From: an uncultured Acidobacteriota bacterium
GTDB lineage: Bacteria > Acidobacteriota > Vicinamibacteria > Vicinamibacterales > Fen-181
Direction of reading: 5' to 3'
NCBI GenBank assembly: GCA_963776495.1
Contig: CAVZMW010000003.1
Coordinates: 196,326-260,325 of the forward strand
Length of the DNA stretch: 64,000 bases
Under the pieces are notes generated by a model. The model was not told where the DNA came from, made no database searches, and saw only the letters and a list, made by a program, of their open reading frames with translations. The position numbers and the translations under genes were made by a program. Below, piece after piece: positions 2,561 to 56,257 of the stretch (positions are counted from its first letter, which is position 1; each line of letters starts with the position of its first letter).

Positions 2561-2563
2561 AAG

Positions 2564-10653: not shown

Positions 10654-11850
10654 ATGTTTTCGGCCTCGCACGATCCGCTCGCGGCCTGGCGCGACGAATT
10701 CCCGATCCTCCACCGCACGGTCTACATGATCAGCAACTCGCTCGGCGCGATGCCGCGCGACGCCGCCCGCTCGCTGGCCGAGTACGCCGACACGTGGGCG
10801 ACCCGGGGCGTGCGGGCGTGGGAGGAGCGCTGGTGGGAGATGGCGCTCGAGGTCGGCAGCGCCGTCGCCGCCATCGTCGGGGCCCCCGCGGGGTCGGTGT
10901 GCATGCACGACAACGTGACGTCGGCGCAGATGGCCGTGCTCTCGTGCCTGAAGCCCGAGGGGCGGCGTCGCACGATCGTCTGCACGGCGGCCGACTTCCC
11001 GTCGGTGATCCACCTCTACCGCGCCCAGGTCCCGCTCGGGTTCGACCTGCGCGTGGTGCCGGCGGGGCCGGACCTGAACGTGGACGAGCAGCGCCTGGTG
11101 GAGGCCATCGACGAGACGACGCTCCTGGTCGCCTTCTCGCACGTGCTCTTCCGGACCTCGTTCATCGTCGATCCGCGGCCGGTGGTGGAGCGCGCGCGCC
11201 AAGTCGGAGCGCTGACGCTGCTCGACGTCTACCAGTCGGCGGGGATCGTCCCGCTGGACCTGACCGGGCTCGGCGTCGACTTCGCGGCCGGCGGCTGTCT
11301 GAAGTGGCTGTGCGGCGGGCCGGGCAACGCGTTCCTCTACGCGCGCCCCGACCTGCTCCGGACGCTCCACCCGCGCTTCACCGGCTGGCTGGCGCTCACC
11401 CGCCCCTTTGCCTTCGACATCGACGAGGGCGAGCTGCGCGAGGACGCGTGTCGCCTGATGAACGGCACGCCGCCCATCCCGGCTTACTACGCCGCGCTGC
11501 CGGGTCTCCGGATCGTCGGCCGGGTTGGCGTGGACCGGATCCGCGAGCAGTCGAAGCGGCTGACGGCGCGCCTGCTCGAGCTGGTGGATCGGCGGGGGTG
11601 GCCGACGCCCACCTCGCGCGACCCGGAGCGGGTGGCGGGCACCGTCGCCATCGACGTCCCCGACGCGCTGCCGGCCTCGCGCGCGCTCAAGGCACGCGAC
11701 GTCCTCATCGACTACCGGCCGAAGGTCGGCATCCGGGTCTCGCCGCATTTCTACAACACGTTCGAGGAGATCGAACGCCTGGTCGACACTCTCGAACACG
11801 TGCTCGCGGAGCGAGCGTTCGGCGAGGCGCCGCCCACGAGGGTCACCTAG
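10654..11850 (+). CDS. kynU: Kynureninase-like class V PLP enzyme
   Basis: YMISNSLG, WATRGVRAW, LLDVYQS, GGCLKWLCGGPG (PLP lysine). Confidence 0.75.
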   Translation: MFSASHDPLAAWRDEFPILHRTVYMISNSLGAMPRDAARSLAEYADTWATRGVRAWEERWWEMALEVGSAVAAIVGAPAGSVCMHDNVTSAQMAVLSCLKPEGRRRTIVCTAADFPSVIHLYRAQVPLGFDLRVVPAGPDLNVDEQRLVEAIDETTLLVAFSHVLFRTSFIVDPRPVVERARQVGALTLLDVYQSAGIVPLDLTGLGVDFAAGGCLKWLCGGPGNAFLYARPDLLRTLHPRFTGWLALTRPFAFDIDEGELREDACRLMNGTPPIPAYYAALPGLRIVGRVGVDRIREQSKRLTARLLELVDRRGWPTPTSRDPERVAGTVAIDVPDALPASRALKARDVLIDYRPKVGIRVSPHFYNTFEEIERLVDTLEHVLAERAFGEAPPTRVT

Positions 11851-18851: not shown

Positions 18852-19154
18852 GACTCGGAGACAGTGGGCGGCATTGGCGGCTCATACCGCATCGCCACTG
18901 CCCCCGAGCCGAACTCCAGCCGGCTCACGAGCTTCAAGTCGATACGCTTCGACCCGGTTCAGGGTGCTCGACACGACCCAAGAGTACGACCGATGGGGCC
19001 GCCTGGCAATCGTCGCCACGGCGGTCTCCCTCCCGTCTGGCAGCCGCGGCGATCTGGCGTCAGCACAGGCGCCAGGCCTGCGGAGATTCCAGCGCGTTCT
19101 CGCGCGTTCCGACCGGCACGTCGCGTGCATTGACGACGATGTACGATGCGAACC

Positions 19155-19721
19155 GTGGCACGGGTCCCGCCGTTCGATCGCCCGGCGACCTACGAGGATT
19201 TCGTCAAGCTCCCCGACAACCTGGTGGCCGAGATCGTGGGCGGGGAGTTGCACGCGTCGCCTCGCCCGGCGCCGCGCCACTCAGTCGCCGAGACGATCCT
19301 CGGTACCTTGATAGCCGGGCCGTTTCATCTCGGTCGCGGGGGCCCCGGCGGATGGTGGGACCTCCAGGAACCCGAACTGCACCTCGCGGCCGACGTCGTC
19401 GTGCCCGACTTCGCCGGCTGGAGGCGGGTCCGCATGCCCGCACCGCCAGAAACGGCTTACATCGACCTGGCGCCCGACTGGGTGTGCGAGATCCTCTCTC
19501 CCTCGACGGCCTCGCTCGACCGAACGCGGAAGCTCGCCATCTACGCGCGCGAGCGAGTCGGTCACGCCTGGCTGGTGGACCCGTTGGCCCGAACGCTCGA
19601 GGTCCTGCGACTCGAGGCCGACCATTGGGCGATCGTGTCCTCGCACGAGGGACGGGAGTCGGTCCGCGCGGAGCCGTTCGCGGCGGTCGAGCTGGGGCTA
19701 TCCGATCTGTGGGTCGATTAA
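19155..19721 (+). CDS. Uma2 family PD-(D/E)XK endonuclease, copy 1 (alt. ATG 19146)
   Basis: ATYEDF, AEIVGGEL, VVPDFAGW, PDWVCEILSPST, WLVDP; TACGAT box 7 nt before GTG. Confidence 0.92.
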   Translation: MARVPPFDRPATYEDFVKLPDNLVAEIVGGELHASPRPAPRHSVAETILGTLIAGPFHLGRGGPGGWWDLQEPELHLAADVVVPDFAGWRRVRMPAPPETAYIDLAPDWVCEILSPSTASLDRTRKLAIYARERVGHAWLVDPLARTLEVLRLEADHWAIVSSHEGRESVRAEPFAAVELGLSDLWVD

Positions 19722-19929: not shown

Positions 19930-20259
19930 ATGACGGCCGAGAAACGGGAGCTCCTGCAGGGGACGCTCGACCTGCTGGTGCTGAAGACCCTCGCCCTCGA
20001 GCCGATGCACGGCTGGGGCATCTCGCAGCGGATCCAGCAAATCTCGAAGGACGTGCTGTCGGTCACGCAGGGGTCTCTCTACCCCGCCCTCCACCGCCTG
20101 GAGGTGCAGCGGCTCATCGCGTCCGAGATGGGAACCTCCGAGAACAACCGCAAGGCGCGCTTCTACCGGTTGACGGCCGCGGGCCGAAAGCGCCTCGCGG
20201 CCGAGACGGAAAGCTGGGAGCGCCTGTCGCTCGCGGTGGCTCGGATCCTGGAGGCCTAG
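19930..20259 (+). CDS. PadR family regulator, acidobacterial type
   Basis: [41 protein letters not shown]. Confidence 0.95.
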
Positions 20260-20314
20260 GTTCCCGGCGCCGTTCGCGGTCGGGCGCGGTCCCGTTCGTT
20301 GGTCCGAGGTGGCG

Positions 20315-22927
20315 ATGCTGCTCGAACTGCTGGCTCGCATCACGGCACGATTTCAGCGGCGCGACGTCGAACGTGAGGTCGACGCCGAGCTCGCCTTTCA
20401 CCTGGAGATGCAGACCGAGGCGAACCGCGCGCGCGGGATGACGCCCGGCGACGCGCGCCGGGCGGCCCTTCAGTCTCTCGGCGGAGCCGACCAGGTCAAG
20501 GAGGCCGTACGCGACTCACGCGGCACCTGGATCGACTCCGTCTGGCAGGACGTTCGGTACGGCGTCCGTGTTCTTCGCAGCTCGCCCGCATACGCGCTCG
20601 GGGTCATCGTCACGCTCGGCCTCGGCATCGGCGCCACGACGGCCGTGTTCTCGGTCGCCGACGCCGCCGCGCTTCGCCCGCTTCCCTACTCGCGGCCCGA
20701 TCGCCTCTTCGGCATCCACAGCCGATCGACATCCAACGGCCAGGTCTCGATGGGTGTCAGCATCCGCGACTTCCTCGTGTGGCGCGATCACCAGAAGGAC
20801 TTCGGACGAGTCTCGCTGGTCGGCGGCGGGACCTACAACCTCGTCGAAGGCGAGCCCGAGCAACTCAGAGGCTGTGAAGTCACCGGCGACATCTTCGAGA
20901 CACTGGGCGCGAAGCCGCTGCTGGGCCGCGTGTTCGGCCGCGAGCACGAGGTCAGGGGCAACCACTTCGTCGCGGTCATCGGCTACGGGTTCTGGCAGCG
21001 GCGGTTCGGCGGCGACCCGCACATCGTCGGACGGCGGCTGCGCCTCGACGGAGGAGTGTACGAGGTCCTGGGCGTCATGCCGGCCGGATTCACGTTCCCG
21101 CCGAGCGTCCGTCCGTACGATTTGTGGACGCCCTTCTCGTTCGACGCGTCGGCCAGGGAAGACGTGTCACCAGGTCGTAGCGCCGTGCTTCGCTTGAAGG
21201 ACGGCGTGTCCCCGGCACAGGCCGACGCCAGGCTGCAGTCGCTTTCCGGCGGCCTGAAGCAGATCCCGGGCTTTGGCTGGCGGCCCTTTCTGCTGCCGCT
21301 GGACGAGATCGAGGTCGGAGACAGCAAGCGCTGGATGGCGATGCTCCTGGGCGCGGCAGCGTTCGTGCTGCTCATCGCGTGCGCGAACGTGGCCCACCTG
21401 ACGCTGTCCCGCACCTCCGGCCGTGCTCGTGAGCTCGCCGTGCGGCGGGCGCTCGGAGGCGGGCGCCTTCGCCTCGTCCGCCAACTGGCGACCGAGAGTC
21501 TTCTCTTGTCGTCGGTGGCGACCGGGGTCGGCGTCCTGGTGGCGTGGACGGGCGTGCGGATTTTGAGCGCGTCCGCTCCGCGCAGCCTCGCTCGCCTGGC
21601 GGACATTGCCGTCAACGGGCGCGTGCTGGCGTTTGCCGTCGCGGCAGGTCTCGTGACGGGGCTCCTTTCCGCGGTGCTTCCAGCGGTGCGCGGCGCCCGG
21701 GCCGACGTCGTGGGTGGACTCAAGGACGGCGGCCCGCTGGCCACCGGTGGACGCGTCGGGCGCCGCTTCCGGGAGGCGCTGGCCTTCAGCGAGGTGGCCC
21801 TGTCGTTCGTGCTGCTGGCCGGGGCCGCGCTCTTCATCGCGAGCTTCATCCGGCTGATGAGCGTCGAACCTGGTTTCGACGTGCGCAACCTCGTCGTGCT
21901 CGAGGTCGACGTCCCGAAAGACGTGACCGCCGGGGGGCGCAGCCTCGCCGATCTGGAAACGCTGCTCGACCGGGTGCGCCGGACGCGCGGCGTCACGGGT
22001 GCCGGCGTGATCGCGAGCGGCTGGATGTTCGGCGGCGGTCAAATGACCTATCCCGCGCACGAGCCCGGTTCGCCGCGTCCACAGGGCGAAACCGGGTCCA
22101 GCGACCTCACGTGGGTGACTCCAGGCTTCTTCCGTGTCCTGGGTGTTCCACTGGTTCGCGGCCGCGACCTGGACGACCACGATACGATGAGCGCGCCGCC
22201 GGTGATCCTCGTGAACCAGACCGCGGCCCGTCGTCACTGGGGCGGCCTGAATCCGCTGGGCCGACAGCTCGTGGTTCAAGATCGAACCTACGAGGTGGTG
22301 GGCGTCGTCGGCGACATCGCGCAGGTCGGCACCGACGCCGGACCACGCCCGGTGCTCTACATTCCGCTGGCGCAGATGAAGCGCCGGGCGTACGGCTCGT
22401 TCGTCGCGCGTCTCGACGGTCCGGTCAGTGACACGATGGCCGGCATGAGGCGCGCGGTCCACTCCGTCTGGCCGCAGCAGCCGATCTCGAGGGTCGCCAC
22501 GCTCGAAGATGGCATCTGGCGCAGCACGACCACTCGACGCTTCAACACGATCCTGATGGCCGTCTTCGGGATCCTGGCGGTCGTCATCGCCGTCTCGGGG
22601 TTGAACAGCGTCATGACCTGCTCGGTGGGCGAGCGACGTCGCGAGATGGCGATCCGTCTCGCCCTCGGCGCGCGGCGGGACCAGGTGATCAGGACTGTGC
22701 TCGGCCGAAGCGCGCTGATCACGCTGCTCGGCGTCGGGGCGGGCGGCGGAGCGGCGTGGGCGCTCGGCCGCTACGTGGAGAGCTACCTCTTCGAGATTCG
22801 GCCGCACGACCCGCGCGTCCTGGCCGCCGCGGCCCTGCTTCTTGCGCTGCTGGCGATCCTGGCGTGCTGGCCGCCGGCCCGGCGGGCGTCGAACACCGAT
22901 CCGGTGGCGGCGCTCAAGACCGAGTAA
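20315..22927 (+). CDS. ADOP-type duplicated ABC permease (MacB-PCD/FtsX x2) with N-terminal prefix domain
   Basis: EVDAELAFHLEMQ, QDVRYGVRVL, LLIACANVA, RELAVRRALG, RREMAIRLALGA; no ATPase gene adjacent. Confidence 0.92.
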   Translation: MLLELLARITARFQRRDVEREVDAELAFHLEMQTEANRARGMTPGDARRAALQSLGGADQVKEAVRDSRGTWIDSVWQDVRYGVRVLRSSPAYALGVIVTLGLGIGATTAVFSVADAAALRPLPYSRPDRLFGIHSRSTSNGQVSMGVSIRDFLVWRDHQKDFGRVSLVGGGTYNLVEGEPEQLRGCEVTGDIFETLGAKPLLGRVFGREHEVRGNHFVAVIGYGFWQRRFGGDPHIVGRRLRLDGGVYEVLGVMPAGFTFPPSVRPYDLWTPFSFDASAREDVSPGRSAVLRLKDGVSPAQADARLQSLSGGLKQIPGFGWRPFLLPLDEIEVGDSKRWMAMLLGAAAFVLLIACANVAHLTLSRTSGRARELAVRRALGGGRLRLVRQLATESLLLSSVATGVGVLVAWTGVRILSASAPRSLARLADIAVNGRVLAFAVAAGLVTGLLSAVLPAVRGARADVVGGLKDGGPLATGGRVGRRFREALAFSEVALSFVLLAGAALFIASFIRLMSVEPGFDVRNLVVLEVDVPKDVTAGGRSLADLETLLDRVRRTRGVTGAGVIASGWMFGGGQMTYPAHEPGSPRPQGETGSSDLTWVTPGFFRVLGVPLVRGRDLDDHDTMSAPPVILVNQTAARRHWGGLNPLGRQLVVQDRTYEVVGVVGDIAQVGTDAGPRPVLYIPLAQMKRRAYGSFVARLDGPVSDTMAGMRRAVHSVWPQQPISRVATLEDGIWRSTTTRRFNTILMAVFGILAVVIAVSGLNSVMTCSVGERRREMAIRLALGARRDQVIRTVLGRSALITLLGVGAGGGAAWALGRYVESYLFEIRPHDPRVLAAAALLLALLAILACWPPARRASNTDPVAALKTE

Positions 22928-29715: not shown

Positions 29716-31206
29716 TCACTTTCCGGCCGGCGCCAGTCGCTTCAACCCGTCGCGAACGGCGGATTCGAGCGTGAACCCGTACGAGCCCGAGAAGCCGACG
29801 ATGCGCTCGCGGACGATCCCCTCGCCGTCGAGCACCAGGGTCGTGGGAATGGGCCGCACGCCAAACAGCCTGGCGATCCGCCCGCTGCCGTCCAGCGAGT
29901 GGTGCCACGTCATCTTCTCGTCGGCGATCGCGGCGCGCCAGGCGGCGGCGTCGGTGTCGATGCTGACGCTCAGCAGGACCACCGGCTGCGCCGCGTACTT
30001 CTTCTGGATACCCCGCAGAAACGCGACTGTCGAGCGGCACGGGCCGCACCAGCTGGCCCAGAAGTCGATCACGACGACGTTCCCGCGCAGGCTCTCGAGG
30101 TCGAAGTGCAGCCCCTCGCGTGTCACGAGGCTGAAGTCGGGCGCGAAGTTCTCGCGCGCCCGGCGCGGGTTGGCGATCATCCGCTCCGCGTCCTTCGCGG
30201 CGGCGCCCTCCGGCGCGGCGGCGAGGTACCCGCGCAGTTGTTCGATGCCCGCGGCGGCGTCGCCCGCCTTGAGCAGTACCATCCCGAGGTTGTAGCGGGC
30301 CATCTGGAAGCCGGGGTCGAGTTCGAGCGTCGCGCCGAATTCTCGCGCCGCCGCTTTCAGGTCGTCCGCGCCGGGCGGCTGCTTCTCGCTGGCCCGCGAG
30401 AAGAGCGCAACCCCCTTGGTGTTGTGCGCGACCGCCTTCTCGCCGGCGGACGCCGCGCACTCGATGGTCTTGTCGCACGCCTCGAGCACGCTCTTGTAGG
30501 CGTTCAGGCCATCGTAGGCCTGCGCGAGCCCGAGGTAGCCGCGAGCGGTCGGGTTTTCCTTGCCGAGCGCCTTCTTGAAGACCTTGACGGCGTCGTCGTA
30601 CTGCCGCATGCGGAGCAGGGCGAAGGCTTCTTCCATCGCGGGGCTCAACGGTGCGGCCGACGCCGACTCGGGGCCGGCCTCCCCTCCACCCGAGGGCGGC
30701 GCGGCGGACGGCAGGGCTCCCGCGGCGGACACGACGGTGAAGTCGAACACCTTCGTGGCGCGGTCGCCCGTCAGCCGGTTCACGGCTTCCACGCGGAGCG
30801 TGCACACCCCAGGCGAAGTCCGCGCGGGCAAGGTGAACGTCCGCCAGACCCCCCAGTTGGTCGATTGCGTCGGCTCGTTGAACTCGGCCGTCTGGTCGTA
30901 GAGGCTGCGGCCCTCGGCGGTGGCGACCTGGAGGTGGAACATGAGGTCCACCCGCCCCTGGCGCGGCGTGCCATACGTCTCGACGTAGAGCCAGACACGG
31001 TCACCGGCCAGGAACTGCGTCTTGACGACGAAGGTGCCCCAGCCGCGCACCTCGGAGGCCGTCGTCACCCTCCCGAAGCGGACCGTGCCCGTGGACGGAG
31101 GGCCGGAATCTCTCTGCTGCCCGTCCGCCTCGATGACGTCTCCGGCGGGCCAGAGCACTGCGAGCGTCAAGACCGCCAGCGCAGCCAGCCATCGCGCTCG
31201 TCCCAT
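29716..31206 (-). CDS. Exported protein with TPR repeats and a C-terminal TlpA-like thioredoxin domain
   Basis: Signal peptide, TPR-like helices (ARYNLGMVLLKAG), APDFSL...VVVIDFWASWCGPC...IPTTLVLDGEG. Confidence 0.88.
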   Translation of the reverse strand: MGRARWLAALAVLTLAVLWPAGDVIEADGQQRDSGPPSTGTVRFGRVTTASEVRGWGTFVVKTQFLAGDRVWLYVETYGTPRQGRVDLMFHLQVATAEGRSLYDQTAEFNEPTQSTNWGVWRTFTLPARTSPGVCTLRVEAVNRLTGDRATKVFDFTVVSAAGALPSAAPPSGGGEAGPESASAAPLSPAMEEAFALLRMRQYDDAVKVFKKALGKENPTARGYLGLAQAYDGLNAYKSVLEACDKTIECAASAGEKAVAHNTKGVALFSRASEKQPPGADDLKAAAREFGATLELDPGFQMARYNLGMVLLKAGDAAAGIEQLRGYLAAAPEGAAAKDAERMIANPRRARENFAPDFSLVTREGLHFDLESLRGNVVVIDFWASWCGPCRSTVAFLRGIQKKYAAQPVVLLSVSIDTDAAAWRAAIADEKMTWHHSLDGSGRIARLFGVRPIPTTLVLDGEGIVRERIVGFSGSYGFTLESAVRDGLKRLAPAGK

Positions 31207-31335
31207 TTGCAGCCTCCTCGGATCGATCCCGCGAGTTCCGGACCGCACGGGGAGAGTCTAACCCCATGCGCGCCCAGGGCGATCTGACGAATCGTCATGA
31301 AGGCGTTACGCCGGCCGGGCTCCAGCCCAGCCAAG

Positions 31336-31378
31336 GCCGTCGGGTTCTATAATGGACGTCGTTCCGCGCAGGTCCACT
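31336..31378 (+). promoter_or_regulatory. Conserved promoter/leader block with TATAAT (31348-31353); second copy at 35145-35187
   Basis: 22/23 identical core GCCGYCGGGTTCTATAATGGACG, about 36/43 overall. Confidence 0.7.
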
Positions 31379-31396
31379 CAAACCGGAGGCGAACCC

Positions 31397-31612
31397 ATGA
31401 TCTACATCTTCGGCAAGGACACCTGACCGTACACCCTGGCCGCCCGTGAGGAGTACGGCAGGCGGCGCGTGGAGTTCGAGTACCTCAACGTCAAGAAGGA
31501 CCGGGCGGCGTTGGAGCGCATGCTCGCCTTGACCGACGGACGCCGCGACGTGCCCGTGATCGTCGACGGCGCCAAGGTCACGATCGGATTCGGGGGCTCT
31601 TGAGGGGTCTGA
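31397..31612 (+). CDS. Glutaredoxin-like selenoprotein with two in-frame UGA codons (Uxx-star type), 71 aa
   Basis: Not in the ORF track. GGAGG RBS; MIYIFGKDT-U-PYTLAAREEY...RRDVPVIVDGAKVTIGFGGS-U-GV-stop. UGA codons at 31424 (CPYx active-site position) and 31601; hairpins follow both (31427-31458, 31606-31640). Confidence 0.88.
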
Positions 31613-31701
31613 CCGGGCTGCCGGGCGCAGCCCGCAGACCGCTGGGCGCGGCGCGTGACGCCTCGCTCGCATCCGGCTCGGCACTCGAGGGCGGCGGCAC
31701 C

Positions 31702-34389
<2,688 letters not shown>

Positions 34390-34397: not shown

Positions 34398-34413
34398 ACG
34401 CATTATAATGCGT
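34398..34413. promoter_or_regulatory. Perfect 16-bp palindrome ACGCATTATAATGCGT giving TATAAT on both strands
   Basis: Lies between the divergent kinase and peroxiredoxin genes. Confidence 0.65.
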
Positions 34414-34468: not shown

Positions 34469-35041
34469 ATGTTGTACCTCTTGCTGACGGCAGCCATTCT
34501 CGCCGGCACGCCGGCGGGCGTCCCCATCCCGGCGGCCGCGGGGCCGGCCGGGCCAGTCTCGCTCGAGCCGGGCGACCCGGCGCCCCCATTCACGCTCAAG
34601 GGCTCGGACGGGCGGACGTACCGGCTCCAGGACTTCCGCGGCAAGCGGGCGGTTGTCCTCGCGTGGTTCGCCAAGGCGTCTTCAGCTGGTTGAACGGCAG
34701 AATGCCAGTCGCTCCGTGTGAGCGGCGACTCGATTCGAGCATTCGACGTCGTGCACTTCGCGGCGAGCACCGACAAGCCGGAGGACCTCACGGCGTTCGC
34801 CCAGAAGATCGGCGCAGACTACCCACTGCTCGGCGACCCGACCAAGGAGGTCGCGAAGGCGTACGGAGTCGTCCAGGACGGCCAGGCGTACGCCGTCCGG
34901 TGGACCTTCTACATCGGGATCGACGGGAAGATCCTCTACGTCGACAAGGCCGTCAGTGCCGCCAACGCCGGCAGGGACATCGCCCAACGACTCGGGGAGT
35001 TGGGCGTCGCACGAAGGGCCGCACCCAGAGTGTCGAAGTAG
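34469..35041 (+). CDS. Selenocysteine-containing AhpC/TSA (BCP/PrxQ-like) peroxiredoxin
   Basis: ORFs 34457-34693 and 34718-35041 are one frame separated by TGA 34691-34693 at the peroxidatic position (FAKASSAG-U-TAEC); hairpin at 34707-34730; GAGGAG RBS before ATG 34469. Confidence 0.88.
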
Positions 35042-35232
35042 CCCACCGCCGCACGTCGGACCGCGCGCCCACTTGTCCGCCACTCCCCTGTTCGGACACC
35101 ACCTTGATGTCGCCGGCCTCCATCTGCGCCCTGGCACGCTCGACGCCGCCGGGTTCTATAATGGACGCGGCTCCCCGCAGTTCCGCTTGAGTGTGATTGG
35201 GAAGCTGTCATGAGAACATCCAGCGTCGTCCC

Positions 35233-35907
35233 ATGATCGAACTGACCGGCGTCAGCAAGCAGTTCGACGGGAAGCGGCGGGTCACCGCGCTCTCGGCGGT
35301 CGACCTCGCGGTCGGCCGGGGCGAGCTGGTGTCGATCGTCGGGCCGTCGGGGTCCGGGAAGTCGACGCTCCTCAACCTGATCGGCGGCCTGGATCGACCG
35401 ACGACCGGCGAGATCCGTATCGACGGCCAGCGGCTCGGCGGCCTGTCGGACGACCAGCTGACGCTCATCCGCCGCGACAAGCTCGGGTTCATCTTCCAGT
35501 TCTTCAACCTGCTCCCGTCGCTCACGTGCCTGGAGAATGTCGCGCTGCCGCTCCATCTTCGGGGATGGCCCCGGCGAAAGGCGGTGGCGCGGGCGCGTGA
35601 ACTGCTGGAGTTGGTCCAACTGGCGCCGCGCCTCGAGCACACCCCCGACGAACTCTCCGGAGGCGAGCGCCAGCGAACGGCCATCGCCAGGGCGCTCGCG
35701 GTCTACCCGCCGATCCTGCTGGCCGACGAACCGACCGGCAACCTCGATACCGGCACCGGCGCCGAGATCCTCGACCTCATCCGGGATCTCCACGGGCGCC
35801 TCGGCGCCACGGTCCTCATCGTGACGCACGACCTCGCCGTGGCCCGCAGCTGCCCGCGCACGCTCACCATCCGCGACGGCCGGGTGGTCGGGGACGAACG
35901 CCGATGA
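35233..35907 (+). CDS. ABC transporter ATP-binding protein (LolD/MacB-like)
   Basis: GPSGSGKS, LSGGERQR, LLADEPTGNLD. Confidence 0.95.
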   Translation: MIELTGVSKQFDGKRRVTALSAVDLAVGRGELVSIVGPSGSGKSTLLNLIGGLDRPTTGEIRIDGQRLGGLSDDQLTLIRRDKLGFIFQFFNLLPSLTCLENVALPLHLRGWPRRKAVARARELLELVQLAPRLEHTPDELSGGERQRTAIARALAVYPPILLADEPTGNLDTGTGAEILDLIRDLHGRLGATVLIVTHDLAVARSCPRTLTIRDGRVVGDERR

Positions 35908-38456
35908 TCCTGCTCAGGCTGATCAGCTGGCCGTACACCCGCAAGCACATCCTCCGGACCCTCCTGACCACGGCGGGCATCGTCCTCGGCGTCGGCGTGT
36001 TCGTCGGGATGCACACCGCGAACCAGTCGGTCCTCTACGCGCTCCACGAGACGGTGGACCGGATCGCCGGCACGACCCAGTTGCAGGTCACGGCGGGCGA
36101 GAGCGGGTTCGACGAGGGCGTGCTCGAGCGGGTGCAGGACGTGCCTGAGGTCCGGGTCGCGGTCCCGGTCATCGAGGCCGTCGTGGACACCGAGCTGCCG
36201 GGCCAGGGCAGCGTGATGATCCTGGCCGTGGACATGACGGGCGACGGATCCTTGCGCGACTACGCGCTCGAGAGCGGCGACGAGCCGATCGTGGACGACC
36301 CGCTGGTCTTCCTGGCGCAGCCCGATTCGCTGATCGTGACGCGGGAGTTCGCCCTGCAGAACCACCTGCAGACGGGCAGCGTCGTCCCGATGCGGACGAT
36401 GGAGGGGCCGAAGCGGTTCGTCGTCCGCGGGATCATGAAGTCGAGCGGCCTGGCGAAGGCCTTCGGCGGCAATCTCGCGATCATGGACGTCTACGCCGCC
36501 CAGAAGGTGTTCGGGCGGGGACGCAAGTTCGACCGGATCGACCTGGCGGTCCGCGAGGGCTACTCGATCGAGCAGTGCCGCGCCGCGCTCGAGAAGACGC
36601 TGGGGCCCGGCTTCGAGGTCGAGACGCCGGCCAGCCGCGGTCAGCAGTTCGACTCGGTGCTCCGCGTCTACTCGGTGACGGTGAACATCACGAGCCTGTT
36701 CGCGCTCTTCATCGGGATGTTCATCATCTACAACTCGTTTGCGATCGCGGTGACGCAGCGCCGGGCGGAGATCGGAATCCTCAGGGCGCTGGGCGCGACG
36801 CGCCGGCAGATCCGCGGGTTGTTCCTGGCCGAGAGCGCCGTCGCGGGCCTGGTCGGCTCGACGCTCGGCCTCGGGTTCGGCTACCTGCTGGCGAGGGGGA
36901 CGGCCGGCTACGTCGGGCAGATGCTCCAGGGGATTTCGGGTGTCGCGCAACGGGTCGAGGAGGTCGCCACCGACCCCAGGCTGATGGGGCTCGCCGTCGT
37001 GATGGGCGTCGTGACCAGCATGGTGGCGGCGTTCGTCCCGGCACGAAACGCGGCGCGCGTCGATCCGGTGCAGGCGCTGCAGAAGGGGCGCTACCAGGTG
37101 CTGTCGGCCGGCGAGAACCGCGCGCGCCTCGTGGTGGCCCTCGCGTTCGCGGCGGTCTCGGCCGGATGCCTGGTGGCCGGCACCGGCGATCTCGCCTTCT
37201 ACGCCGGCTTCGTCCTCGCCATGGCCGCCGCGCTGCTCCTGACGCCGGCGCTGGCGCTGTGGCTCACGCGCGGCCTCCGGCCGCTGCTCGGCTGGCTGTG
37301 GCCGGTCGAGGGCGCGCTGGCGGCCGACAGTCTGATCCAGGCGCCCCGGCGGACGTCGGCCACGGTGTCGGCGCTGATGCTCTCGCTGAGCATGACGATC
37401 GGCCTCGGCGGAATCTCGAAGGCCAGCTACGAGTCGATCACCGACTGGATGGGCACGGCCCTCAACCCGGACCTGTTCGTCACCGCGTCGCCCACGCTGA
37501 CCAGCCGCAGCTTCCTGTTCCCCGCCGCCCTCGGGCCGACGATCGAGCAGGTAGACGGCGTGGAGCAGGTGCAGAGCGTCCGCACGCCGCGCATCCGGTT
37601 CCGCGGCACGCCGGTGCTGCTCATCGCGGTCGAGATCCAGAAGTGGGCGGCCCGCGCCGGCCGGAGGCCCATGGAGGGCCGGCCCGACGAGGCGTACCGG
37701 CTGGCCGCCGAGGGCCGGGGGACGATCCTGTCGCAGAACCTGGCGTCGATGAAGGGCCTCCACGTCGGCGATGCCATCGACATCCCTACCCCGACCGGCC
37801 CGCTCCGTCTCCCCGTCGTCGGGATCATCGAGGACTGGTCCGACCAGCAGGGCTCGATCTTCCTCGACCGCAGCGTCTACCGGAAGTGGTGGAACGACGA
37901 CCGCGTCAACACCTTCCGCGTCTACCTGCGCAAGGGCGCGTCGCTCGCCGGCGTCCGCCAGACGATCCTCACGCGGCTGTCGGCCAACCGCCGACTGTTC
38001 GTGCTCACCAACGAGGAGGTCCGGAGCTACATCACCGGCCTGACCGACCAGTGGCTCGCCCTCTCGTACTCGCAGATCGCGGTGGCGGTGCTCGTGGCCG
38101 TGCTGGGCATCATGAACACGCTGACCGTCTCGATCATGGACCGCCGCCGGGAGCTGGGCGTGCTCCAGGCGGTCGGCGCGCGGCGGCGGCAGATCCGCTA
38201 CACGATCTGGATGGAGGCCTTGAGCATCGGCTTCGTCGGCCTCGTGCTCGGCCTCGGTCTCGGCGCCATCAACCTGCATTACGTGCTGGACATGACGCAC
38301 CGCGACATCAGCGGCATGCTGATGCCCTACCGCTTCCCGACCGGGATCGCGCTGATGCTCGTCCCCGTCATCTTCTGCGCGGCGCTGGTGGCCGCGCTGT
38401 GGCCGGCCGAGTCGGCCGTGCGCGGCTCGCTCGTCCAGGCGCTGGAGTACGAATGA
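35904..38456 (+). CDS. FtsX-like duplicated ABC permease
   Basis: QRRAEIGILRALGA and RRRELGVLQAVGA; ATGA overlap with the ATPase gene. Confidence 0.92.
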   Translation: MILLRLISWPYTRKHILRTLLTTAGIVLGVGVFVGMHTANQSVLYALHETVDRIAGTTQLQVTAGESGFDEGVLERVQDVPEVRVAVPVIEAVVDTELPGQGSVMILAVDMTGDGSLRDYALESGDEPIVDDPLVFLAQPDSLIVTREFALQNHLQTGSVVPMRTMEGPKRFVVRGIMKSSGLAKAFGGNLAIMDVYAAQKVFGRGRKFDRIDLAVREGYSIEQCRAALEKTLGPGFEVETPASRGQQFDSVLRVYSVTVNITSLFALFIGMFIIYNSFAIAVTQRRAEIGILRALGATRRQIRGLFLAESAVAGLVGSTLGLGFGYLLARGTAGYVGQMLQGISGVAQRVEEVATDPRLMGLAVVMGVVTSMVAAFVPARNAARVDPVQALQKGRYQVLSAGENRARLVVALAFAAVSAGCLVAGTGDLAFYAGFVLAMAAALLLTPALALWLTRGLRPLLGWLWPVEGALAADSLIQAPRRTSATVSALMLSLSMTIGLGGISKASYESITDWMGTALNPDLFVTASPTLTSRSFLFPAALGPTIEQVDGVEQVQSVRTPRIRFRGTPVLLIAVEIQKWAARAGRRPMEGRPDEAYRLAAEGRGTILSQNLASMKGLHVGDAIDIPTPTGPLRLPVVGIIEDWSDQQGSIFLDRSVYRKWWNDDRVNTFRVYLRKGASLAGVRQTILTRLSANRRLFVLTNEEVRSYITGLTDQWLALSYSQIAVAVLVAVLGIMNTLTVSIMDRRRELGVLQAVGARRRQIRYTIWMEALSIGFVGLVLGLGLGAINLHYVLDMTHRDISGMLMPYRFPTGIALMLVPVIFCAALVAALWPAESAVRGSLVQALEYE

Positions 38457-43347: not shown

Positions 43348-43546
43348 CGAATCGCGGCCCCTCGTCTTCTTGGAGATCCGGACCCGTTGTCAACCAGGCA
43401 GTCGTGGCCACCGCGCTCCCCCTCCCGACTGGCAGGCACGGCGATCTGGCGTCAGCACTGCCGCCCGGCCTGCGGAGATTCCGGCGAGTTCAGGCGCGTT
43501 CCGGCCGGCACGCGGCGTGCACGGACGACGATGTACAATGCGAGCC

Positions 43547-44113
43547 GTGGCACGGGTCCCGCCGTTCGATCGACCGGCGACCTATGACGATCTCGTCAAG
43601 CTCCCCGACAACCTGGTAGCCGAGATCGTGGACGGGGAACTGCACGCCTCCCCGCGGCCGGCGCCCCGCCATGCGGTGGCCGAGACGGCTGTCGGCATGC
43701 TGCTCGGCAATCCGTTCCATTTCGGTCGCGGCGGTCCTGGCGGCTGGTGGATTCTCGCAGAACCGGAGCTTCATCTCGGGTCCGACGTCCTCGTTCCCGA
43801 CTACGCGGGCTGGCGCCGAACTCGCATGCCCTCGATTCCAGATAAGGCCTACTTCGAGCTGGCGCCCGACTGGCTATGCGAGGTCATCTCGCCCTCGACG
43901 GCCTCGCTCGATCGCACGCGGAAGCTCGCCGCGTACGCGCGAGCGGGGGTGCCTCACGTCTGGCTGGTCGATCCGCTGGCGCGGACGCTCGAAGTGCTCC
44001 GCCTCGAAGCGGGCCGCTGGACCATCGTGGCCTCGCACGCGGGAAACGAGACGGTCCGCGCCGAGCCGTTCGGCGAGGTCGAGCTGGCGCTCGCGGATCT
44101 CTGGGTGGACTGA
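43547..44113 (+). CDS. Uma2 family endonuclease, copy 2 (alt. ATG 43538)
   Basis: Close paralogue of 19155-19721; TACAAT 7 nt before GTG. Confidence 0.92.
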   Translation: MARVPPFDRPATYDDLVKLPDNLVAEIVDGELHASPRPAPRHAVAETAVGMLLGNPFHFGRGGPGGWWILAEPELHLGSDVLVPDYAGWRRTRMPSIPDKAYFELAPDWLCEVISPSTASLDRTRKLAAYARAGVPHVWLVDPLARTLEVLRLEAGRWTIVASHAGNETVRAEPFGEVELALADLWVD

Positions 44114-45478: not shown

Positions 45479-45649
45479 CGTCGCTCCCACGACCTGGACT
45501 GCGGCCTCAGTCACCGGCCTTGCTGGCGCCGCAACCGGCTGCCGCGGAGTCGCTCCCGCGCCACGCGTCGCCGACCTTCGCCCCGCAGGTCCGTCTTAAT
45601 GCCCCAGGACTGTCGTGCAGGGCGTAGAATCCCACGCAAGGAGCGTCCC

Positions 45650-48190
45650 GTGACCCGGCCACTTGTCATCGAGCGTCACGTGGCCGACCTTCGGTGGGCC
45701 GTCAGGTCCCTGCGCCGCGCGCCCGCCTCGTCAGCCGTCGCGGTCCTCTCGCTGGCGCTCGGCATCGGCGCCAACACCGCCATCTTCTCGATGATCAACA
45801 CGCTGCTCCTGCGGACGCTCCCCGTCCCGTCGCCGCAGGAACTGCGGTTCGTGATGCAGCGTCCCGGCGACCGGCTCTCGTGGAACTACCCCGACTACCT
45901 GGCCTTCCGGGACGGCACCGCCGTTCCCCTGGCCGCCGCCTCGGGCGTGCAGCCGATCGGCGTGCAGGCATCGGAGAGCGCCACGGAGGTCGCCGAACTG
46001 GCGCCGAACCAGTTCGTCTCGGGCAACTACTTCGCCGTCATGGGGGTCACGCCGGAAGTTGGCCGGCTCTTTGGTGCCGCCGACGACCGCCAACTGGGGG
46101 CCGCACCCTACGCGGTCGTCGGGTACGACTACTGGCGCGCGCGCTTCGCGGGCGATCCGCGGGTCGTGGGCCGGACGATCCGCGTCAACGGCTATCCGCT
46201 CACGATCGTCGGCGTGGTCCGGCGCGGGTTCCGGGGAACCGACCCCACGAGATCGCCCGCCCTCTACGTGCCGATCGCGATGCACTCCGAGGTGAACCGC
46301 GTCCCGGCCGGAGTCTGGAACACGCGCCACTACTGGTGGATCCGCACCATCGGACGCGTGCCGGCCGGTGCGAACATCCCGTCGCTCGAGACGCGCCTCA
46401 CCAACATCGCCCGCGCGCAGGACGAGGCCGAGCGGCGCCAGGACCCGCGAACGGGCGCGCGCGGCAAGGCGGTGACCGTCGCGCTGATGCCGGGCGCGAG
46501 CGGTTACACCTATTCGCGCGGCATCCTCGAGAAGCCGCTGCTGGTCCTGATGGCCATGGTGGGGCTGGTGCTCCTCATCGCGTGCGCCAACGTCGCCAAC
46601 GTCCTGCTGGCGCGCGGGGCCGGGCGGGGGCGGGAGCTGGCGATTCGCATGGCGATGGGCGCCGGGCGCGGCCGGATCGCGTCGCAGCTCCTGACCGAAA
46701 GCCTGGTGATGTCGCTGGCCGGAGGCGTGGGCGGGATCCTGCTGGCCTGGTTCGGCGGCGGCGCCCTGCTCGCCCGGTTCGTTCCGCAGGCGGGATCGAC
46801 CCCGGTTGAGATCGACCTGGCTCCCGACCTGGCCGTGCTGGCCTTCACCACCGCGGTCGCCGTGGGGACCGGCATACTCGCGGGGCTCGCCCCGGCCTTC
46901 CAGGCATCCCGGTTCGTGCTCGTTCCGGCGCTGAAGACCGACACGGCCGGCGCGTCACGCGCGCTCGGGCGGCGGCTGCTGGTCGTCGGTCAGGTCGCGT
47001 TGTCGCTGCTGCTCGTCATCGGCGCGGCGCTCTTCGCGCGCAGTCTCGCGAATCTCGAGAGCCTCGACCCCGGCTTCGAGCGCGATCGCCTGGTCATCGC
47101 GTCCGCCAATCCGGAGAGTCTCGGCTACAAGGGGCAGCGGCTGCGCGACTTCTTCGAGCGGCTGCGCCAAGGTGTCGAACGTGTACCCGGGGTCAGGTCC
47201 GCCAGCCTCGCGGTCATCTCGCCCCTCGATGGCACGCGATGGAACGGTGACTTCGCAGTCGAAGGTGATAAGTCGCAGCAGGCCGACGAGCGGGTGGTCG
47301 ATTTCAACTCGGTGGGCCCACGCTTCTTCGAGACCATGGGCATCCCGGTGGTGGTCGGACGCGAGTTCCTGCCCGAGGACAGCCCGGCCGTCGTCCCCGA
47401 TCCGCGCGAACGCCCCTCGCGCGAACCCGTGCCCGAACTGCCGGGCCCGCGGCGCGCGATCGTCAACGAGAGCTTCGCCCGGAAATACCTCCCTGGCGGG
47501 AGTCCACTCGGCCGCCGCGTCTCGATGACCGAGACGTTCGACGCGGCCCGCGCCTACGAGGTCGTTGGTGTCGTCCGGGACGTGAGGTACTTCGGACTCA
47601 GAGAGAACCCCGAACCCATGGTCTACGTCCCGGTCTGGCGTGGCCTGACGTCGTCGCTGACGCTGGCCATACGGACGCGCGGGAGGGTCGCCGGCCTCGG
47701 CCAGTCGATTCGTTCGGTCCTGGCCGGCATCGACGTCGCCGTTCCGCTGCGGGACCTCGAGACGGGCGAAGAGCAGATCGACAGCGACATCGTCCAGGAC
47801 AGGCTCGTGGCCACGCTCGCCACCCTGTTCGGCGGACTGGCGCTCCTGCTCGCGGCCATCGGCCTCTACGGCGTGCTCGCGTACCTTGCCGCCCGCCGCA
47901 CCCGCGAAATCGGGATTCGCCTGGCGCTCGGCGCCGGCCGGTCGAGCGTTTTGTGGCTCGTGACGCGGGATGCGGTCGCGATGGTGGGAGTCGGGGCGGT
48001 GGTCGGCCTCGGGGCGGCCGTGGGCGCCGCGCGGCTCGTGGGGAGCCTGCTGTTCGGCCTCGACGCGCACGATCCGATGACGGCGGCCGTCGCGACGCTC
48101 GTGCTGCTGGCGGCCGCCGCGCTCGCCGTGCTCGTGCCCGCGCGCCGCGCGATGGCGATCGAACCCAGCCAGGCCCTGCGGGACGAGTGA
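45650..48190 (+). CDS. ADOP-type duplicated ABC permease, no adjacent PadR
   Basis: AAGGAG RBS before GTG 45650; SLALGIGANTAIFS, LLIACANVAN, RTREIGIRLALGA. Confidence 0.92.
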   Translation: MTRPLVIERHVADLRWAVRSLRRAPASSAVAVLSLALGIGANTAIFSMINTLLLRTLPVPSPQELRFVMQRPGDRLSWNYPDYLAFRDGTAVPLAAASGVQPIGVQASESATEVAELAPNQFVSGNYFAVMGVTPEVGRLFGAADDRQLGAAPYAVVGYDYWRARFAGDPRVVGRTIRVNGYPLTIVGVVRRGFRGTDPTRSPALYVPIAMHSEVNRVPAGVWNTRHYWWIRTIGRVPAGANIPSLETRLTNIARAQDEAERRQDPRTGARGKAVTVALMPGASGYTYSRGILEKPLLVLMAMVGLVLLIACANVANVLLARGAGRGRELAIRMAMGAGRGRIASQLLTESLVMSLAGGVGGILLAWFGGGALLARFVPQAGSTPVEIDLAPDLAVLAFTTAVAVGTGILAGLAPAFQASRFVLVPALKTDTAGASRALGRRLLVVGQVALSLLLVIGAALFARSLANLESLDPGFERDRLVIASANPESLGYKGQRLRDFFERLRQGVERVPGVRSASLAVISPLDGTRWNGDFAVEGDKSQQADERVVDFNSVGPRFFETMGIPVVVGREFLPEDSPAVVPDPRERPSREPVPELPGPRRAIVNESFARKYLPGGSPLGRRVSMTETFDAARAYEVVGVVRDVRYFGLRENPEPMVYVPVWRGLTSSLTLAIRTRGRVAGLGQSIRSVLAGIDVAVPLRDLETGEEQIDSDIVQDRLVATLATLFGGLALLLAAIGLYGVLAYLAARRTREIGIRLALGAGRSSVLWLVTRDAVAMVGVGAVVGLGAAVGAARLVGSLLFGLDAHDPMTAAVATLVLLAAAALAVLVPARRAMAIEPSQALRDE

Positions 48191-53503: not shown

Positions 53504-56257
53504 ATGCCTGCCGCAGAACGGCGCGGGCCGTCCGGTGTACGGCGCTTCTATCGCGCGCTCTTGCGCCTGCTTCCGTTCGAGTTCCGGGCGGAGTTCGGGC
53601 AAGACATGGAGCAGGCGTTCTCGGACGAACAGGAAGACGTCCTGACGCGTCGGAAGCGCACGCAGGTTCTCGGCTTCTGGCTCCGCACGCTCGTCGATTT
53701 CGCCCGCACGGCGCCTCGTGAACAGTGGGACATCCTGCGTCAGGACCTGCGAGCTGGCGCGAGACTGCTCGCCCGCAGCCCCGGCTTTGCGATAACCGCC
53801 ATCCTGACGCTGGCCCTCGGCATCGGTGGCAGCACGAGCATCTTCTCGGTTGTCTATGCCGTTGTGCTGCGTCCGCTCGCCTTCCCGCAATCCGAGCGCG
53901 TGGTCGATGTGGGATGGGGAAGCGCGGAACAGGCGGGTGGCGCACCCGCGGTCCTCCGTCCGGTATCGCTCTCCGCTCTTCAGGCCTTGCGGGAGAGATG
54001 CAAGTCGTTCGACGTGATCGCCGCGACGCAGCACGACTCTCTCTCGTCGGATCGAGGCGCGCTGTACGTGCGATTGCCCGACTCCGAGCTGAGTGGTGTC
54101 GGACCGGGTTTCGTCCCGCCGATGATGGCCTCCGCCTCGTTCTTCAAGCTGCTTGGCGTCTCGGCCGTGCTCGGCCGCCTGCCCGACGAACGCGACGAAC
54201 AGCCCGGAGCCACTCCGGTCGCGGTCCTCAGCTACAGCACCTGGACGTCCGTATACGGCCGGGACGCGAAGGTGATTGGCCGGACGCTCGTCCGGCATCT
54301 CGCCCACGATCGTCGGAAGTCGGTGACGATCGTGGGTGTGCTCGCAGCAGGCGCCTTGAAGGGCCTGGGGTGGGATGGACCCGAAGTGTCCGCGGTGGCC
54401 TCGCTCGACGCCGACACGATGCGCGACGGGACCGGACGCGACATTTCCTCGTTGTACGTCTACGCCCGGCTTGCGCCGGGCGTCTCTGTCGGCGCAGCCC
54501 GCGCGGAACTCGCCACGCTCACGCCGCGCCTCGCGCCTTCGCCGCCGAAGACGGCCGCGAACATCACGGCATCGCTGCGCGCCAATCTGCTTCGCGACGA
54601 ACGCGTCGGCCGGGTCCGGGCGCCATTGGTCTTGTTTCTCTGGGCGGTCCTGGGGCTGCTGCTCGTGGCCTGCGTGAACGTCAGCAGCCTGGTGCTCGCG
54701 CGCACGATCTCCCGGCGCCACGAGTTCGCGGCCCGCTTTGCTCTCGGCGCACGGCCGTTTCGCGTGGCCCGCCAACTGCTCACCGAGAGCGCGATTCTCT
54801 CGGCGTCCGGCGGCATCACGGGACTTGCGCTGGCGTGGGCCGGCTGGCGGGCGTTCATGGCCATCAGCCCGTCGATGCCGCGGTTGAACGACTCGGGAAT
54901 TGGGATGCCCGCCCTGCTGTTCGCACTGGCAGCGGTCCTCCTGGCCACGTGCGTGTCCGCGCTGGTGCCCGCATGGCTGTCGTCGCGGCGAGCCGTCGCG
55001 GACGGACTGCGGCGCGCCGGCGGCGCGCATGCAGCCGCAACCGGGTTCTCCAGGCCGCTCGCCCTGCTGGCAGCAGCCGAAGTCGCAACCGTGCTGGTGC
55101 TGCTTGCGGGAACCGGACTTCTCGTCAACAGCTTCGCCCGTCTCGTCGCATCCGATCTGGGATTTGACGCCCGGTCGATCGTGATGGTCACAATCACACA
55201 TAACCTGCCAGACGAAGGAACATCGCGACAGGCGCCCGGTGGCAACGAGCAGCACACGGTGGCGGTGCTGTCCGCGCGCCAGCGCAAGGCCGCTGCCATC
55301 GGCGACGAGATCACGCAGCGAATTGCGGCAATCCCTGGTGTCGCGGCGGTCGCCCTCACGGGCGACGATCCGTTCGGACTGCCGTGCCGCTACTCCGACG
55401 CCCGGATTGAAGACGCCGACCCACCCGTCGATGCGGACCGGCGAGTCGCCAGTCCAGCCGCCCTCGATGCCCTTGGCCTGCGCGTGATCAGCGGTCGCTG
55501 GTTCGGCCGTGACGATCGCGAGGGCATGCCGCTGGTAGCTGTCGTCAACGAGACGATGGCCAAGAGGCTCTGGAACGCGCGCAGTGCAGTCGGAGGGCGG
55601 TTCCTCGAGGGTCGCCTGACCAGGCGGGTCGTCGGCGTTGTCGGCGACGTTCATAACTTCGGTGCGCGCCGACACGCCGCGCCCGCGTTCTACATCCCGA
55701 CGTCGCAGGCATATCCGGATCCGGTGATGCTGGTCGTGCGCAAGCGGCCCGGCGCAATCGGAGTGGGCAACCTCGTGGCCGCGGAACTCGCGAAGATCGG
55801 AAACCGAATCGAGGCAGGAGCTCCGCGTCAGCTCGAGAACATCTGGTGGAGGCAGCTTTCAGACGCCAGGTTCCTCGCGCTGGTCGTTTCCGTGTTCAGC
55901 CTGATCGCACTGGCCATCGCAGTGGTCGGCGTGCACGGGGTGCTGCGCTTCTCCGTGGCCCAACGAACGCGCGAGATGGGAATTCGCAAGGCGCTTGGCG
56001 CCACCGACGCCGACCTCGTGACGCTCGTCATCGGTCAGGCGCTCCGGTTCACCCTGCCGGCCTGTCTGGTCGGGCTTGTGGCCGCCTGGGCGGCGGGGCC
56101 CGCCATTCGCTCGCTGCTATTCGGTGTCACCCCGACCGATCCGCTGACGATGGTGATCGCCGTCGTGCTTCTCGTCGCGGCTGTCGTCGTTGCGGCTTAT
56201 TTTCCCGCGCGGCGCGCGAGCGCCGTCGATCCGTCGCTGTCGCTCAAGTGCGAATAG
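53504..56257 (+). CDS. ADOP-type duplicated ABC permease
   Basis: FYRALLRLLPFEFRAEFG prefix, QDLRAGARLL, LLVACVNV, RTREMGIRKALGA. Confidence 0.9.
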   Translation: MPAAERRGPSGVRRFYRALLRLLPFEFRAEFGQDMEQAFSDEQEDVLTRRKRTQVLGFWLRTLVDFARTAPREQWDILRQDLRAGARLLARSPGFAITAILTLALGIGGSTSIFSVVYAVVLRPLAFPQSERVVDVGWGSAEQAGGAPAVLRPVSLSALQALRERCKSFDVIAATQHDSLSSDRGALYVRLPDSELSGVGPGFVPPMMASASFFKLLGVSAVLGRLPDERDEQPGATPVAVLSYSTWTSVYGRDAKVIGRTLVRHLAHDRRKSVTIVGVLAAGALKGLGWDGPEVSAVASLDADTMRDGTGRDISSLYVYARLAPGVSVGAARAELATLTPRLAPSPPKTAANITASLRANLLRDERVGRVRAPLVLFLWAVLGLLLVACVNVSSLVLARTISRRHEFAARFALGARPFRVARQLLTESAILSASGGITGLALAWAGWRAFMAISPSMPRLNDSGIGMPALLFALAAVLLATCVSALVPAWLSSRRAVADGLRRAGGAHAAATGFSRPLALLAAAEVATVLVLLAGTGLLVNSFARLVASDLGFDARSIVMVTITHNLPDEGTSRQAPGGNEQHTVAVLSARQRKAAAIGDEITQRIAAIPGVAAVALTGDDPFGLPCRYSDARIEDADPPVDADRRVASPAALDALGLRVISGRWFGRDDREGMPLVAVVNETMAKRLWNARSAVGGRFLEGRLTRRVVGVVGDVHNFGARRHAAPAFYIPTSQAYPDPVMLVVRKRPGAIGVGNLVAAELAKIGNRIEAGAPRQLENIWWRQLSDARFLALVVSVFSLIALAIAVVGVHGVLRFSVAQRTREMGIRKALGATDADLVTLVIGQALRFTLPACLVGLVAAWAAGPAIRSLLFGVTPTDPLTMVIAVVLLVAAVVVAAYFPARRASAVDPSLSLKCE

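Follow-up and report, generated by a model that had tools for sequence, protein, structure and literature searches.

Within a 64,000-nucleotide (nt) stretch of contig CAVZMW010000003.1 from an uncultured Acidobacteriota bacterium, here called the window and numbered from its first letter, positions 31,397 to 31,612 very probably form a genuine, expressed-type gene; its product would be a thioredoxin-fold protein of 71 residues in UXX-star selenoprotein family 1, with selenocysteine (Sec) at residues 10 and 69. The hairpin behind the second of its two internal UGA codons is positionally conserved among related loci and fits the model of a bacterial Sec insertion sequence (SECIS), and it lies almost wholly beyond the gene's own stop codon, itself a UGA. 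Selenium incorporation is predicted at both internal UGA codons from their sequence context. If this reading is true, the locus is a natural test-bed for the SelB spacing rule, in which an untranslated SECIS has to serve one UGA and leave a terminating UGA 9 nt later to be read as a stop.

A gene with two internal UGA codons

Translation of positions 31397-31642 on the forward strand yields MIYIFGKDT, a stop, PYTLAAREEYGRRRVEFEYLNVKKDRAALERMLALTDGRRDVPVIVDGAKVTIGFGGS, a second stop, GV and a final stop; with Sec at the two internal sites, the protein begins with MIYIFGKDTUPYT and ends with GFGGSUGV. The initial annotation had described here a 71-residue glutaredoxin-like gene with TGA at codons 10 and 69, missing from the list of open reading frames (ORFs), and both its coordinates and its absence from that list are borne out: the list contains only fragments of it (for example 31469-31603, 44 residues), which is why the gene had been hidden. 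The GC content at codon positions 1, 2 and 3 is 0.61, 0.44 and 0.92 across both internal TGAs, a pattern that resembles that of the real genes in this 69% GC window and that the overlapping antisense ORFs lack. TGA is also the commonest ordinary stop in the window, where it ends 14 of 30 genes, and the genetic code is therefore standard. Two scans of the window for other TGA-interrupted genes returned just antisense shadows and ordinary gene ends.

Profile searches, in which both TGAs were written as Cys unless stated otherwise, place the protein firmly. The NCBIfam model NF041114, "UXX-star selenoprotein family 1", is matched at 114.2 bits against a cut-off of 72, with residues 2-71 aligned to positions 1-70 of its 70, and it still scores 100.6 bits when X is written at both Sec sites; the umbrella model NF041212 gives 96.6 bits against a cut-off of 66, in agreement with the Uxx-star layout recognized at the outset. 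Together with the NF041114 score, U-P-Y-T at residues 10-13 and the U-x-x-stop ending make the protein a member of family 1. Pfam Glutaredoxin is the only generic domain above threshold (36.4 bits, threshold 22.9), and the classical models remain far under their cut-offs (Grx3, TIGR02181, 34.5 against 90; NrdH, TIGR02194, 22.5 against 85.75). Assignment as a classical dithiol glutaredoxin or NrdH-redoxin was rejected on these sub-threshold scores, on the motif, which is UPYT and not CxxC, and on the end of the chain four residues after GG.

A protein search recovered 303 homologues, several of which NCBI names 'UXX-star (seleno)protein family 1 [Vicinamibacterales]'. A recent review also gives family 1 the name 'Distant Grx-like protein 1', crediting it to Zhang & Gladyshev 2008 and the sister UXX-star families to Haft & Tolstoy 2025 in mSystems (PMC13188914). 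The family and its presence in this bacterial order were therefore already known, and the gene adds one ordinary case to a selenoprotein family that is both curated and published; its identification is correct but not new.

For comparison we assembled 22 sequences, namely the window and 21 related loci, mostly from Acidobacteriota/Vicinamibacterales. Thirteen of these loci come from species-representative genomes, comprising Acidobacteriota/Vicinamibacterales metagenome-assembled genomes (MAGs) and one Latescibacteria MAG, and are 54-85% identical; the eight others are the DNA of eight among the best 120 database proteins. A frame running through both TGAs is beyond chance, as the curated family model is matched end to end and the frame recurs in all 21 relatives. 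Over the 22 sequences, site 1 is TGA in 14 and TGT or TGC in 8 (13 and 8 among the relatives), and site 2 is TGA in 21 and TGT in one (20 and 1). The 13 close loci carry TGA at site 1 in 12 cases, with TGT in L006, and at site 2 without exception. Seven of the eight further loci have Cys at site 1 followed at the other end by TGA-x-Val-stop, and in the eighth, L038, TGA occupies site 1 and TGT site 2. Cys/Sec interchange among homologues, which had been proposed as a check, is thus what the relatives display, with Cys or TGA at both positions; Sec is nearly always kept at the C-terminal site, while the N-terminal one alternates between the two residues inside a single bacterial order. The only member seen with the reversed arrangement is L038, whose gene occupies about 780-995 of contig JAXAXH0105103334.1.

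The codons that follow site 2 bear directly on how it is read. The first is mostly Gly and the next is Val in 22 of 22 sequences, spelled GTC in 13, GTG in 6, GTT in 2 and GTA in one; since an x-Val-stop ending with synonymous Val codons marks translated codons, the second UGA must be read through. The terminal stop itself varies (TGA 11, TAG 8, TAA 3). Database entries are a poor guide to this end of the protein: CPYT is present in 118 of the best 120 among the 303 homologues, and 117 of the 120 stop at ...GG[T/S] because the C-terminal TGA was taken as their end. The entry for the L038 locus, P0039, starts after site 1 and ends ...GGSCGV.

Hairpins behind the UGA codons and their probable role in selective recoding

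Bacterial SECIS elements are described by a 3-9 nt loop on a 4-16 bp upper stem, a G in one of the first two loop positions, a UGA-to-loop distance of 16-37 nt and a free energy of at most -7.5 kcal/mol, according to the bSECISearch model (as given in PMC13188914). The upper hairpin behind the second UGA (SECIS 2; DNA CGGGCTGC-CGGGC-GCAGCCCG, RNA 5' arm CGGGCUGC) falls within all of these limits, with an 8-bp stem, the loop CGGGC, a spacing of 18 nt and -15.4 kcal/mol. The outer GGTCTG/CAGACC stem that the initial annotation had drawn around it does exist, and the region as a whole reaches -30 kcal/mol (z -2.1), a value matched by 6 of 200 shuffles.

As a MAFFT alignment of the site-2 region left the hairpins out of register, hairpin geometry was assessed sequence by sequence instead of by column counts. 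An equivalent uninterrupted hairpin satisfying the published limits follows 20 of the 21 site-2 UGAs, compared with 1-6% of random positions in the same DNA, and the sole miss, L013, is narrow at -7.2 kcal/mol. At least 10 different stems are used (CGGGCUGC, GCUGCC, CGCGCCC, UCUGCC, GACUGC, CGACCGC, GCGCUC, CCGGCG, GAGCCGC, UGGCCGGCA and others), capped by loops such as CGGGC, GGG, CGUGU, GGUC and CGUGC, and the distance from the UGA to the G-rich loop is fixed within 16-21 nt. Each site-2 hairpin ranks within the best 1-12% of its own locus, for a Fisher-combined P of 1e-7, uncorrected for relatedness. Since SECIS 2 is located 3' of the stop codon, coding constraint cannot explain its conservation. 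SelB binding and Sec insertion dependent on SECIS 2 are predicted, with strong comparative support.

Counted to the start of the SECIS 2 upper stem, the distance is 10 nt from UGA-69 and only 1 nt from the terminal UGA. In Escherichia coli, the SECIS must lie at a fixed short distance from its UGA, with a spacing of about 11 nt in fdhF, a requirement reportedly established by Heider et al. 1992 ("coding from a distance") and by later minimal-SECIS studies. By this rule, the upstream candidate hairpin described below (SECIS 1) would tether the complex of SelB, GTP and Sec-tRNA(Sec) while UGA-10 is in the A site, and SECIS 2 would do the same while UGA-69 is in the A site. Three codons on, when the terminal UGA enters the A site, the ribosome would already have unwound the SECIS 2 stem, which begins a single nucleotide further, so that SelB would be left without a binding site and release factor 2 (RF2) would terminate. 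How one UGA can be recoded and the next terminate beside the same hairpin had been posed as an open question by the initial annotation; it has a standard answer, position relative to the SECIS, and a precedent in rat thioredoxin reductase 1 (TrxR1) constructs, where Sec-Gly-stop followed by a 17-nt SECIS 3' of the stop was decoded efficiently in E. coli (PMC3834832). Read-through of the terminal UGA would append 303 codons. UGA is nevertheless not avoided as the terminal stop, which it provides in 11 of 22 family members as against 14 of 30 window genes, suggesting that position-dependent discrimination by SelB and the SECIS is tight, even with the stop 9 nt downstream. The SECIS for the C-terminal Sec would then be a natural untranslated element, and the locus a compact natural model for 3'-untranslated SECIS function in bacteria.

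For the first UGA, the conserved candidate is a hairpin inside the coding sequence (SECIS 1, Table 1) with a 4-bp upper and a 6-bp lower stem, an apical loop AGGAG placed 22 nt after the UGA and a free energy of -14.4 kcal/mol, all within the published bounds. Its pair cells are paired in 82% of cases over 14 sequences, as against 22-48% for slid controls, with one compensatory pair (GCUGCC/GGCAGC in L007). Codon usage is the most informative sign: all 14 Sec-type genes spell the upper-stem Arg as CGT, against only 2 of the 8 Cys-type genes (Fisher P 4e-4, ignoring phylogeny), and CGT makes up 5.6% of Arg codons in window genes. A role of this hairpin in decoding UGA-10 is predicted with moderate comparative support, weaker than at site 2.

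Proposed tail chemistry and competing readings

A confident AlphaFold model (pLDDT 90.8) was obtained for the homologue P0002, which shares 78% identity with the window protein. It shows a beta-alpha-beta-alpha-beta-beta order without a helix after strand 4; the P0002 chain ends one residue after the GG motif. The model's nearest solved folds are Clostridium Grx1 and NrdH-redoxins (7c12, 1h75, 4fiw; TM scores 0.8-0.85), and by sequence the best similarity to a solved structure is a weak 26 bits. Thr occupies the active-site position at which CxxC proteins carry the resolving Cys. Because that Cys is missing, the most likely source of a resolving selenol would be the flexible GGSUGV tail, whose residue 69 could pair with residue 10 in a diselenide here and in a selenenylsulfide in relatives of the Cys type, much as the Gly-Cys-Sec-Gly tail acts in thioredoxin reductase. 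From two Sec codons in a protein that has neither a resolving Cys nor a C-terminal helix, we propose, tentatively and as a possibility rather than an expectation, an intramolecular U10-U69 diselenide, and with it a natural 71-residue bacterial diselenide oxidoreductase in a soil Acidobacteriota lineage. Such a protein would offer a small system for the study of diselenide or selenenylsulfide chemistry.

Several points weigh against the interpretation offered so far. At site 1, the candidate hairpin is confounded by coding constraint, as its columns encode AARE(E/D)Y..RR; its shuffle control is not significant (88/500) because these columns are nearly invariant; and the relaxed bSECIS limits, satisfied by 23-29% of random positions, are too permissive to decide this site alone. 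Rfam matches neither hairpin, whether at the gathering threshold over the whole window or at E<=10 over 31350-31700. At site 2, L038 retains a strong hairpin (ACGCUGCCC-GGG-GGGCAGCGU) after its stop despite Cys there, perhaps because Cys replaced Sec only recently or because the hairpin also has another function. The redox mechanism through a tail diselenide is one that we infer, and the published suggestion for UXX-star families is binding of a metal or of an unknown substrate (PMC13188914). Finally, no selA, selB, selD or tRNA-Sec was found in the 64-kb window or in about 450 kb of related loci: ARAGORN detected no tRNA-Sec in the window or in 34 loci, and tblastn with E. coli SelD, SelB and SelA over the window and related loci gave no match, which is a weak test.

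Sec decoding in the source organism has good indirect support from a second selenoprotein gene in the window and from Sec-using Acidobacteriota already on record (PMC12013277). The second gene, 3 kb from the first, encodes a peroxiredoxin (Prx)-like protein in which Sec replaces the peroxidatic Cys (...SSAG-U-TAEC...). The protein matches PF00578 across the TGA (positions 1-123 of 124, 96.8 bits), 16 close homologues share the TGA and two have Cys in its place, and a hairpin, GUCGCUC-CGUGU-GAGCGGC, begins 14 nt past the UGA. Both selenoprotein genes occur together in MAG CAWAMP01. Of the Prx-like protein, the ORF list has just the C-terminal 107 residues. The practical gain is a corrected annotation: gene callers miss the UXX-star gene or shorten its product to 44-68 residues, a fate shared by most of the roughly 300 homologues, and they also split the Prx-like gene.

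Among competing readings, the one that fares best accepts the recoding as described and takes the two selenols as a ligand pair for a metal or metalloid (Hg, As or Cu, for example) rather than as a redox couple. We regard it as unlikely, though worth keeping in view. The suggestion of metal binding is relayed in the 2026 review cited above, and genes for an ABC ATPase and a MacB/FtsX-type permease follow the UXX-star gene in L004, L005, L008, L011 and L035, with only the permease gene seen downstream in L036; in the window this ATPase/permease pair lies 3.6 kb downstream of the gene. On the other hand, metal-resistance genes do not recur consistently beside the gene, whose surroundings otherwise vary between loci, the protein has the fold and motif placement of thiol-disulfide oxidoreductases, and the neighbours in the window are themselves redox proteins, namely a TlpA-like thioredoxin-fold protein (29716-31248) and the Prx-like selenoprotein. 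The ABC ATPase/permease neighbourhood does not discriminate between the redox and metal ideas.

A further alternative concerns which structure serves the first UGA. The initial annotation had assigned this role to an inverted repeat starting directly after the codon, CCGTAC...GTACGG with an inner CCT/AGG pair (hairpin 1), which is mutually exclusive with candidate SECIS 1. Such a hairpin is present in the sequence, as a 9-nt inverted repeat with 89% complementarity that forms the minimum-energy fold of its 47-nt stretch; conservation is where the proposal fails, since the structure is specific to the window sequence and two relatives (L001 and L009), and what is conserved is the overlapping SECIS 1 hairpin. 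In an alignment of 14 sequences, the pair cells of hairpin 1 are paired in 52% of cases without compensatory change, as against 82% for the alternative with its Sec-specific rare CGT codon, and pairs 13-44 and 18-39 are broken in 11-12 of the 14. With under 16 nt between the UGA and its inner loop, hairpin 1 falls short of the published spacing window (PMC13188914), and shuffled versions of the 47-nt stretch fold just as well as the real one (z +0.97). We consider it improbable that this hairpin, rather than SECIS 1, is the SECIS for UGA-10.

It is more doubtful still, indeed very improbable, that the second UGA is a plain stop ending a 68-residue protein at ...GFGGS, with the hairpin acting as a terminator or mRNA-stabilizing stem opposite the convergent kinase gene. 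The behaviour of gene callers, which stop 117 of the 120 best homologues at this codon, the position of the hairpin between two convergent genes and its retention in L038 would all fit. Against it stand the x-Val-stop ending in 22 of 22 sequences with four synonymous Val codons, a Cys at exactly site 2 followed by G-V-stop in L038/P0039, a curated family profile that runs through the residues after the second UGA, and a hairpin whose G-rich loop keeps a fixed 16-21 nt from the codon; moreover, no U-tract follows the SECIS 2 stem on its 3' side, and a terminator scan was empty. The last possibility, a decaying glutaredoxin pseudogene with two nonsense mutations or TGA as a sense codon (Trp or Gly), could appeal to P0001, a homologue translated by one pipeline with Trp at both sites, and to the Sec machinery not seen in the window, and is effectively refuted by an intact coding signal, by TGA as the ordinary stop of 14 of 30 window genes, and by two positions that are TGA, never TAA or TAG, and alternate only with Cys over 54-85% identical relatives from many MAGs.

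Genomic surroundings and comparison with known systems

The features discussed are collected in Table 1. A promoter scan reported nothing for the TATAAT region upstream of the UXX-star gene. A perfect TATAAT also precedes the Prx-like gene, at about 34403-34410 and some 60 nt upstream of its ATG, with no recognizable -35 box.

Table 1. Positions of the UXX-star gene, its predicted recoding signals and the second selenoprotein gene in the window
Feature	Position	Strand	Remarks
TATAAT, possible -10 box	31348..31353	+	43 nt upstream of ATG; no matching -35 box; lead only
GGAGG, Shine-Dalgarno-like motif	31385..31389	+	7 nt 5' of ATG; read from sequence
UXX-star family 1 selenoprotein coding sequence	31397..31612	+	ATG start, 71 codons, TGA stop
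Sec codon 1 (predicted), UGA	31424..31426	+	Residue 10; first position of the U/C-P-Y-T active-site motif
Hairpin 1, CCGUAC...GUACGG with inner CCU/AGG	31427..31458	+	Arms CCGTAC 31427-32 and GTACGG 31453-58; real here, not conserved
Candidate SECIS 1, GCCGCC-CGUG-(AGGAG)-UACG-gca-GGCGGC	31439..31466	+	Inside the coding sequence; conserved; overlaps hairpin 1, mutually exclusive with it
Sec codon 2 (predicted), UGA	31601..31603	+	Residue 69; three codons before the end, GGS-U-G-V-stop
SECIS 2 (predicted)	31606..31640	+	Upper stem-loop 31614-31634; lower stem GGUCUG/CAGACC (31606-11/31635-40); almost wholly 3' of the stop
True stop codon, UGA	31610..31612	+	U and G paired in the SECIS 2 lower stem; family profile ends here
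Second selenoprotein gene, AhpC/TSA (PrxQ/Bcp-like) peroxiredoxin, secreted-looking	34469-35041	+	TGA at 34691-34693; 3 kb from the UXX-star gene

The ABC ATPase/MacB-FtsX permease pair, found within about 100 nt of the UXX-star gene in several relatives, lies at 35197-38456 in the window. The Prx-like selenoprotein gene and, on the minus strand, a Ser/Thr kinase-TolB-propeller gene (31702-34389) separate this pair from the UXX-star gene and together look like an insertion.

Other parts of the window hold features of their own. ARAGORN calls a 92-nt tRNA-Ser(UGA) at 11630-11721 (minus strand), antisense in the 3' part of a kynureninase-like gene (10654-11850); Rfam at its gathering threshold finds no tRNA anywhere in the window, and the call is probably a false positive. 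Two closely similar genes, at 19146-19721 and about 43535-44113 (both plus strand), encode products that start MR(T/A)VARVPPFDRPATY(E/D)D... and end ...LSDLWVD or ...LADLWVD; they look like Uma2-family endonucleases, and each adjoins a stretch of weak coding signal (16.6-19.1 kb and 40.5-43.3 kb). Three paralogous genes of about 870-920 residues, at 20309-22927, 45599-48190 and 53504-56257 (plus strand), look like duplicated FtsX-type permeases of the acidobacterial 'ADOP' kind, and a small gene at 19930-20259 with the look of a PadR-type regulator precedes the first of them. A large ORF at 500-2815 (minus strand) looks like a subtilisin-type protease, the C-terminal third of which consists of many short NIVWG(x) repeats.

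Set beside known systems, the window gene is closest to UXX-star family 1 itself, with which it shares the full-length profile match, the UxxT motif, two Sec residues, a Sec three residues from the C-terminus and the bacterial order; nothing of substance differs, the window copy being one with Sec rather than Cys at site 1 and, as in 11 of 22 members, a UGA terminal stop. The selenoprotein glutaredoxin Grx1 of Clostridium oremlandii and the NrdH-redoxins likewise carry their active site where helix 1 begins and share a cis-Pro VPV motif, and differ in their UxxC or CxxC motif and in possessing a C-terminal helix. SECIS 2 resembles E. coli SECIS elements of the fdhF type in its short GC-rich upper stem, in its small G-containing loop some 10-11 nt after the UGA and in a lower stem that takes in the codons beside the UGA, and the GGUC loops of L007 and L008 can be compared with ggttgcaggtctgcacc; it differs in being untranslated and in having no Rfam or other sequence-level match. 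The tail of mammalian thioredoxin reductase (TrxR), Gly-Cys-Sec-Gly-stop, also places Sec at most three residues from the C-terminus on a flexible segment, and in the E. coli constructs its SECIS, too, stands behind the stop codon and is decoded by bacterial machinery (PMC3834832). TrxR is nonetheless a large flavoenzyme with a natural eukaryotic SECIS in its 3' untranslated region, and its bacterial SECIS was engineered, whereas in the window gene the arrangement is natural and the putative partner of the C-terminal Sec is located at the N-terminal active site of a 71-residue protein.

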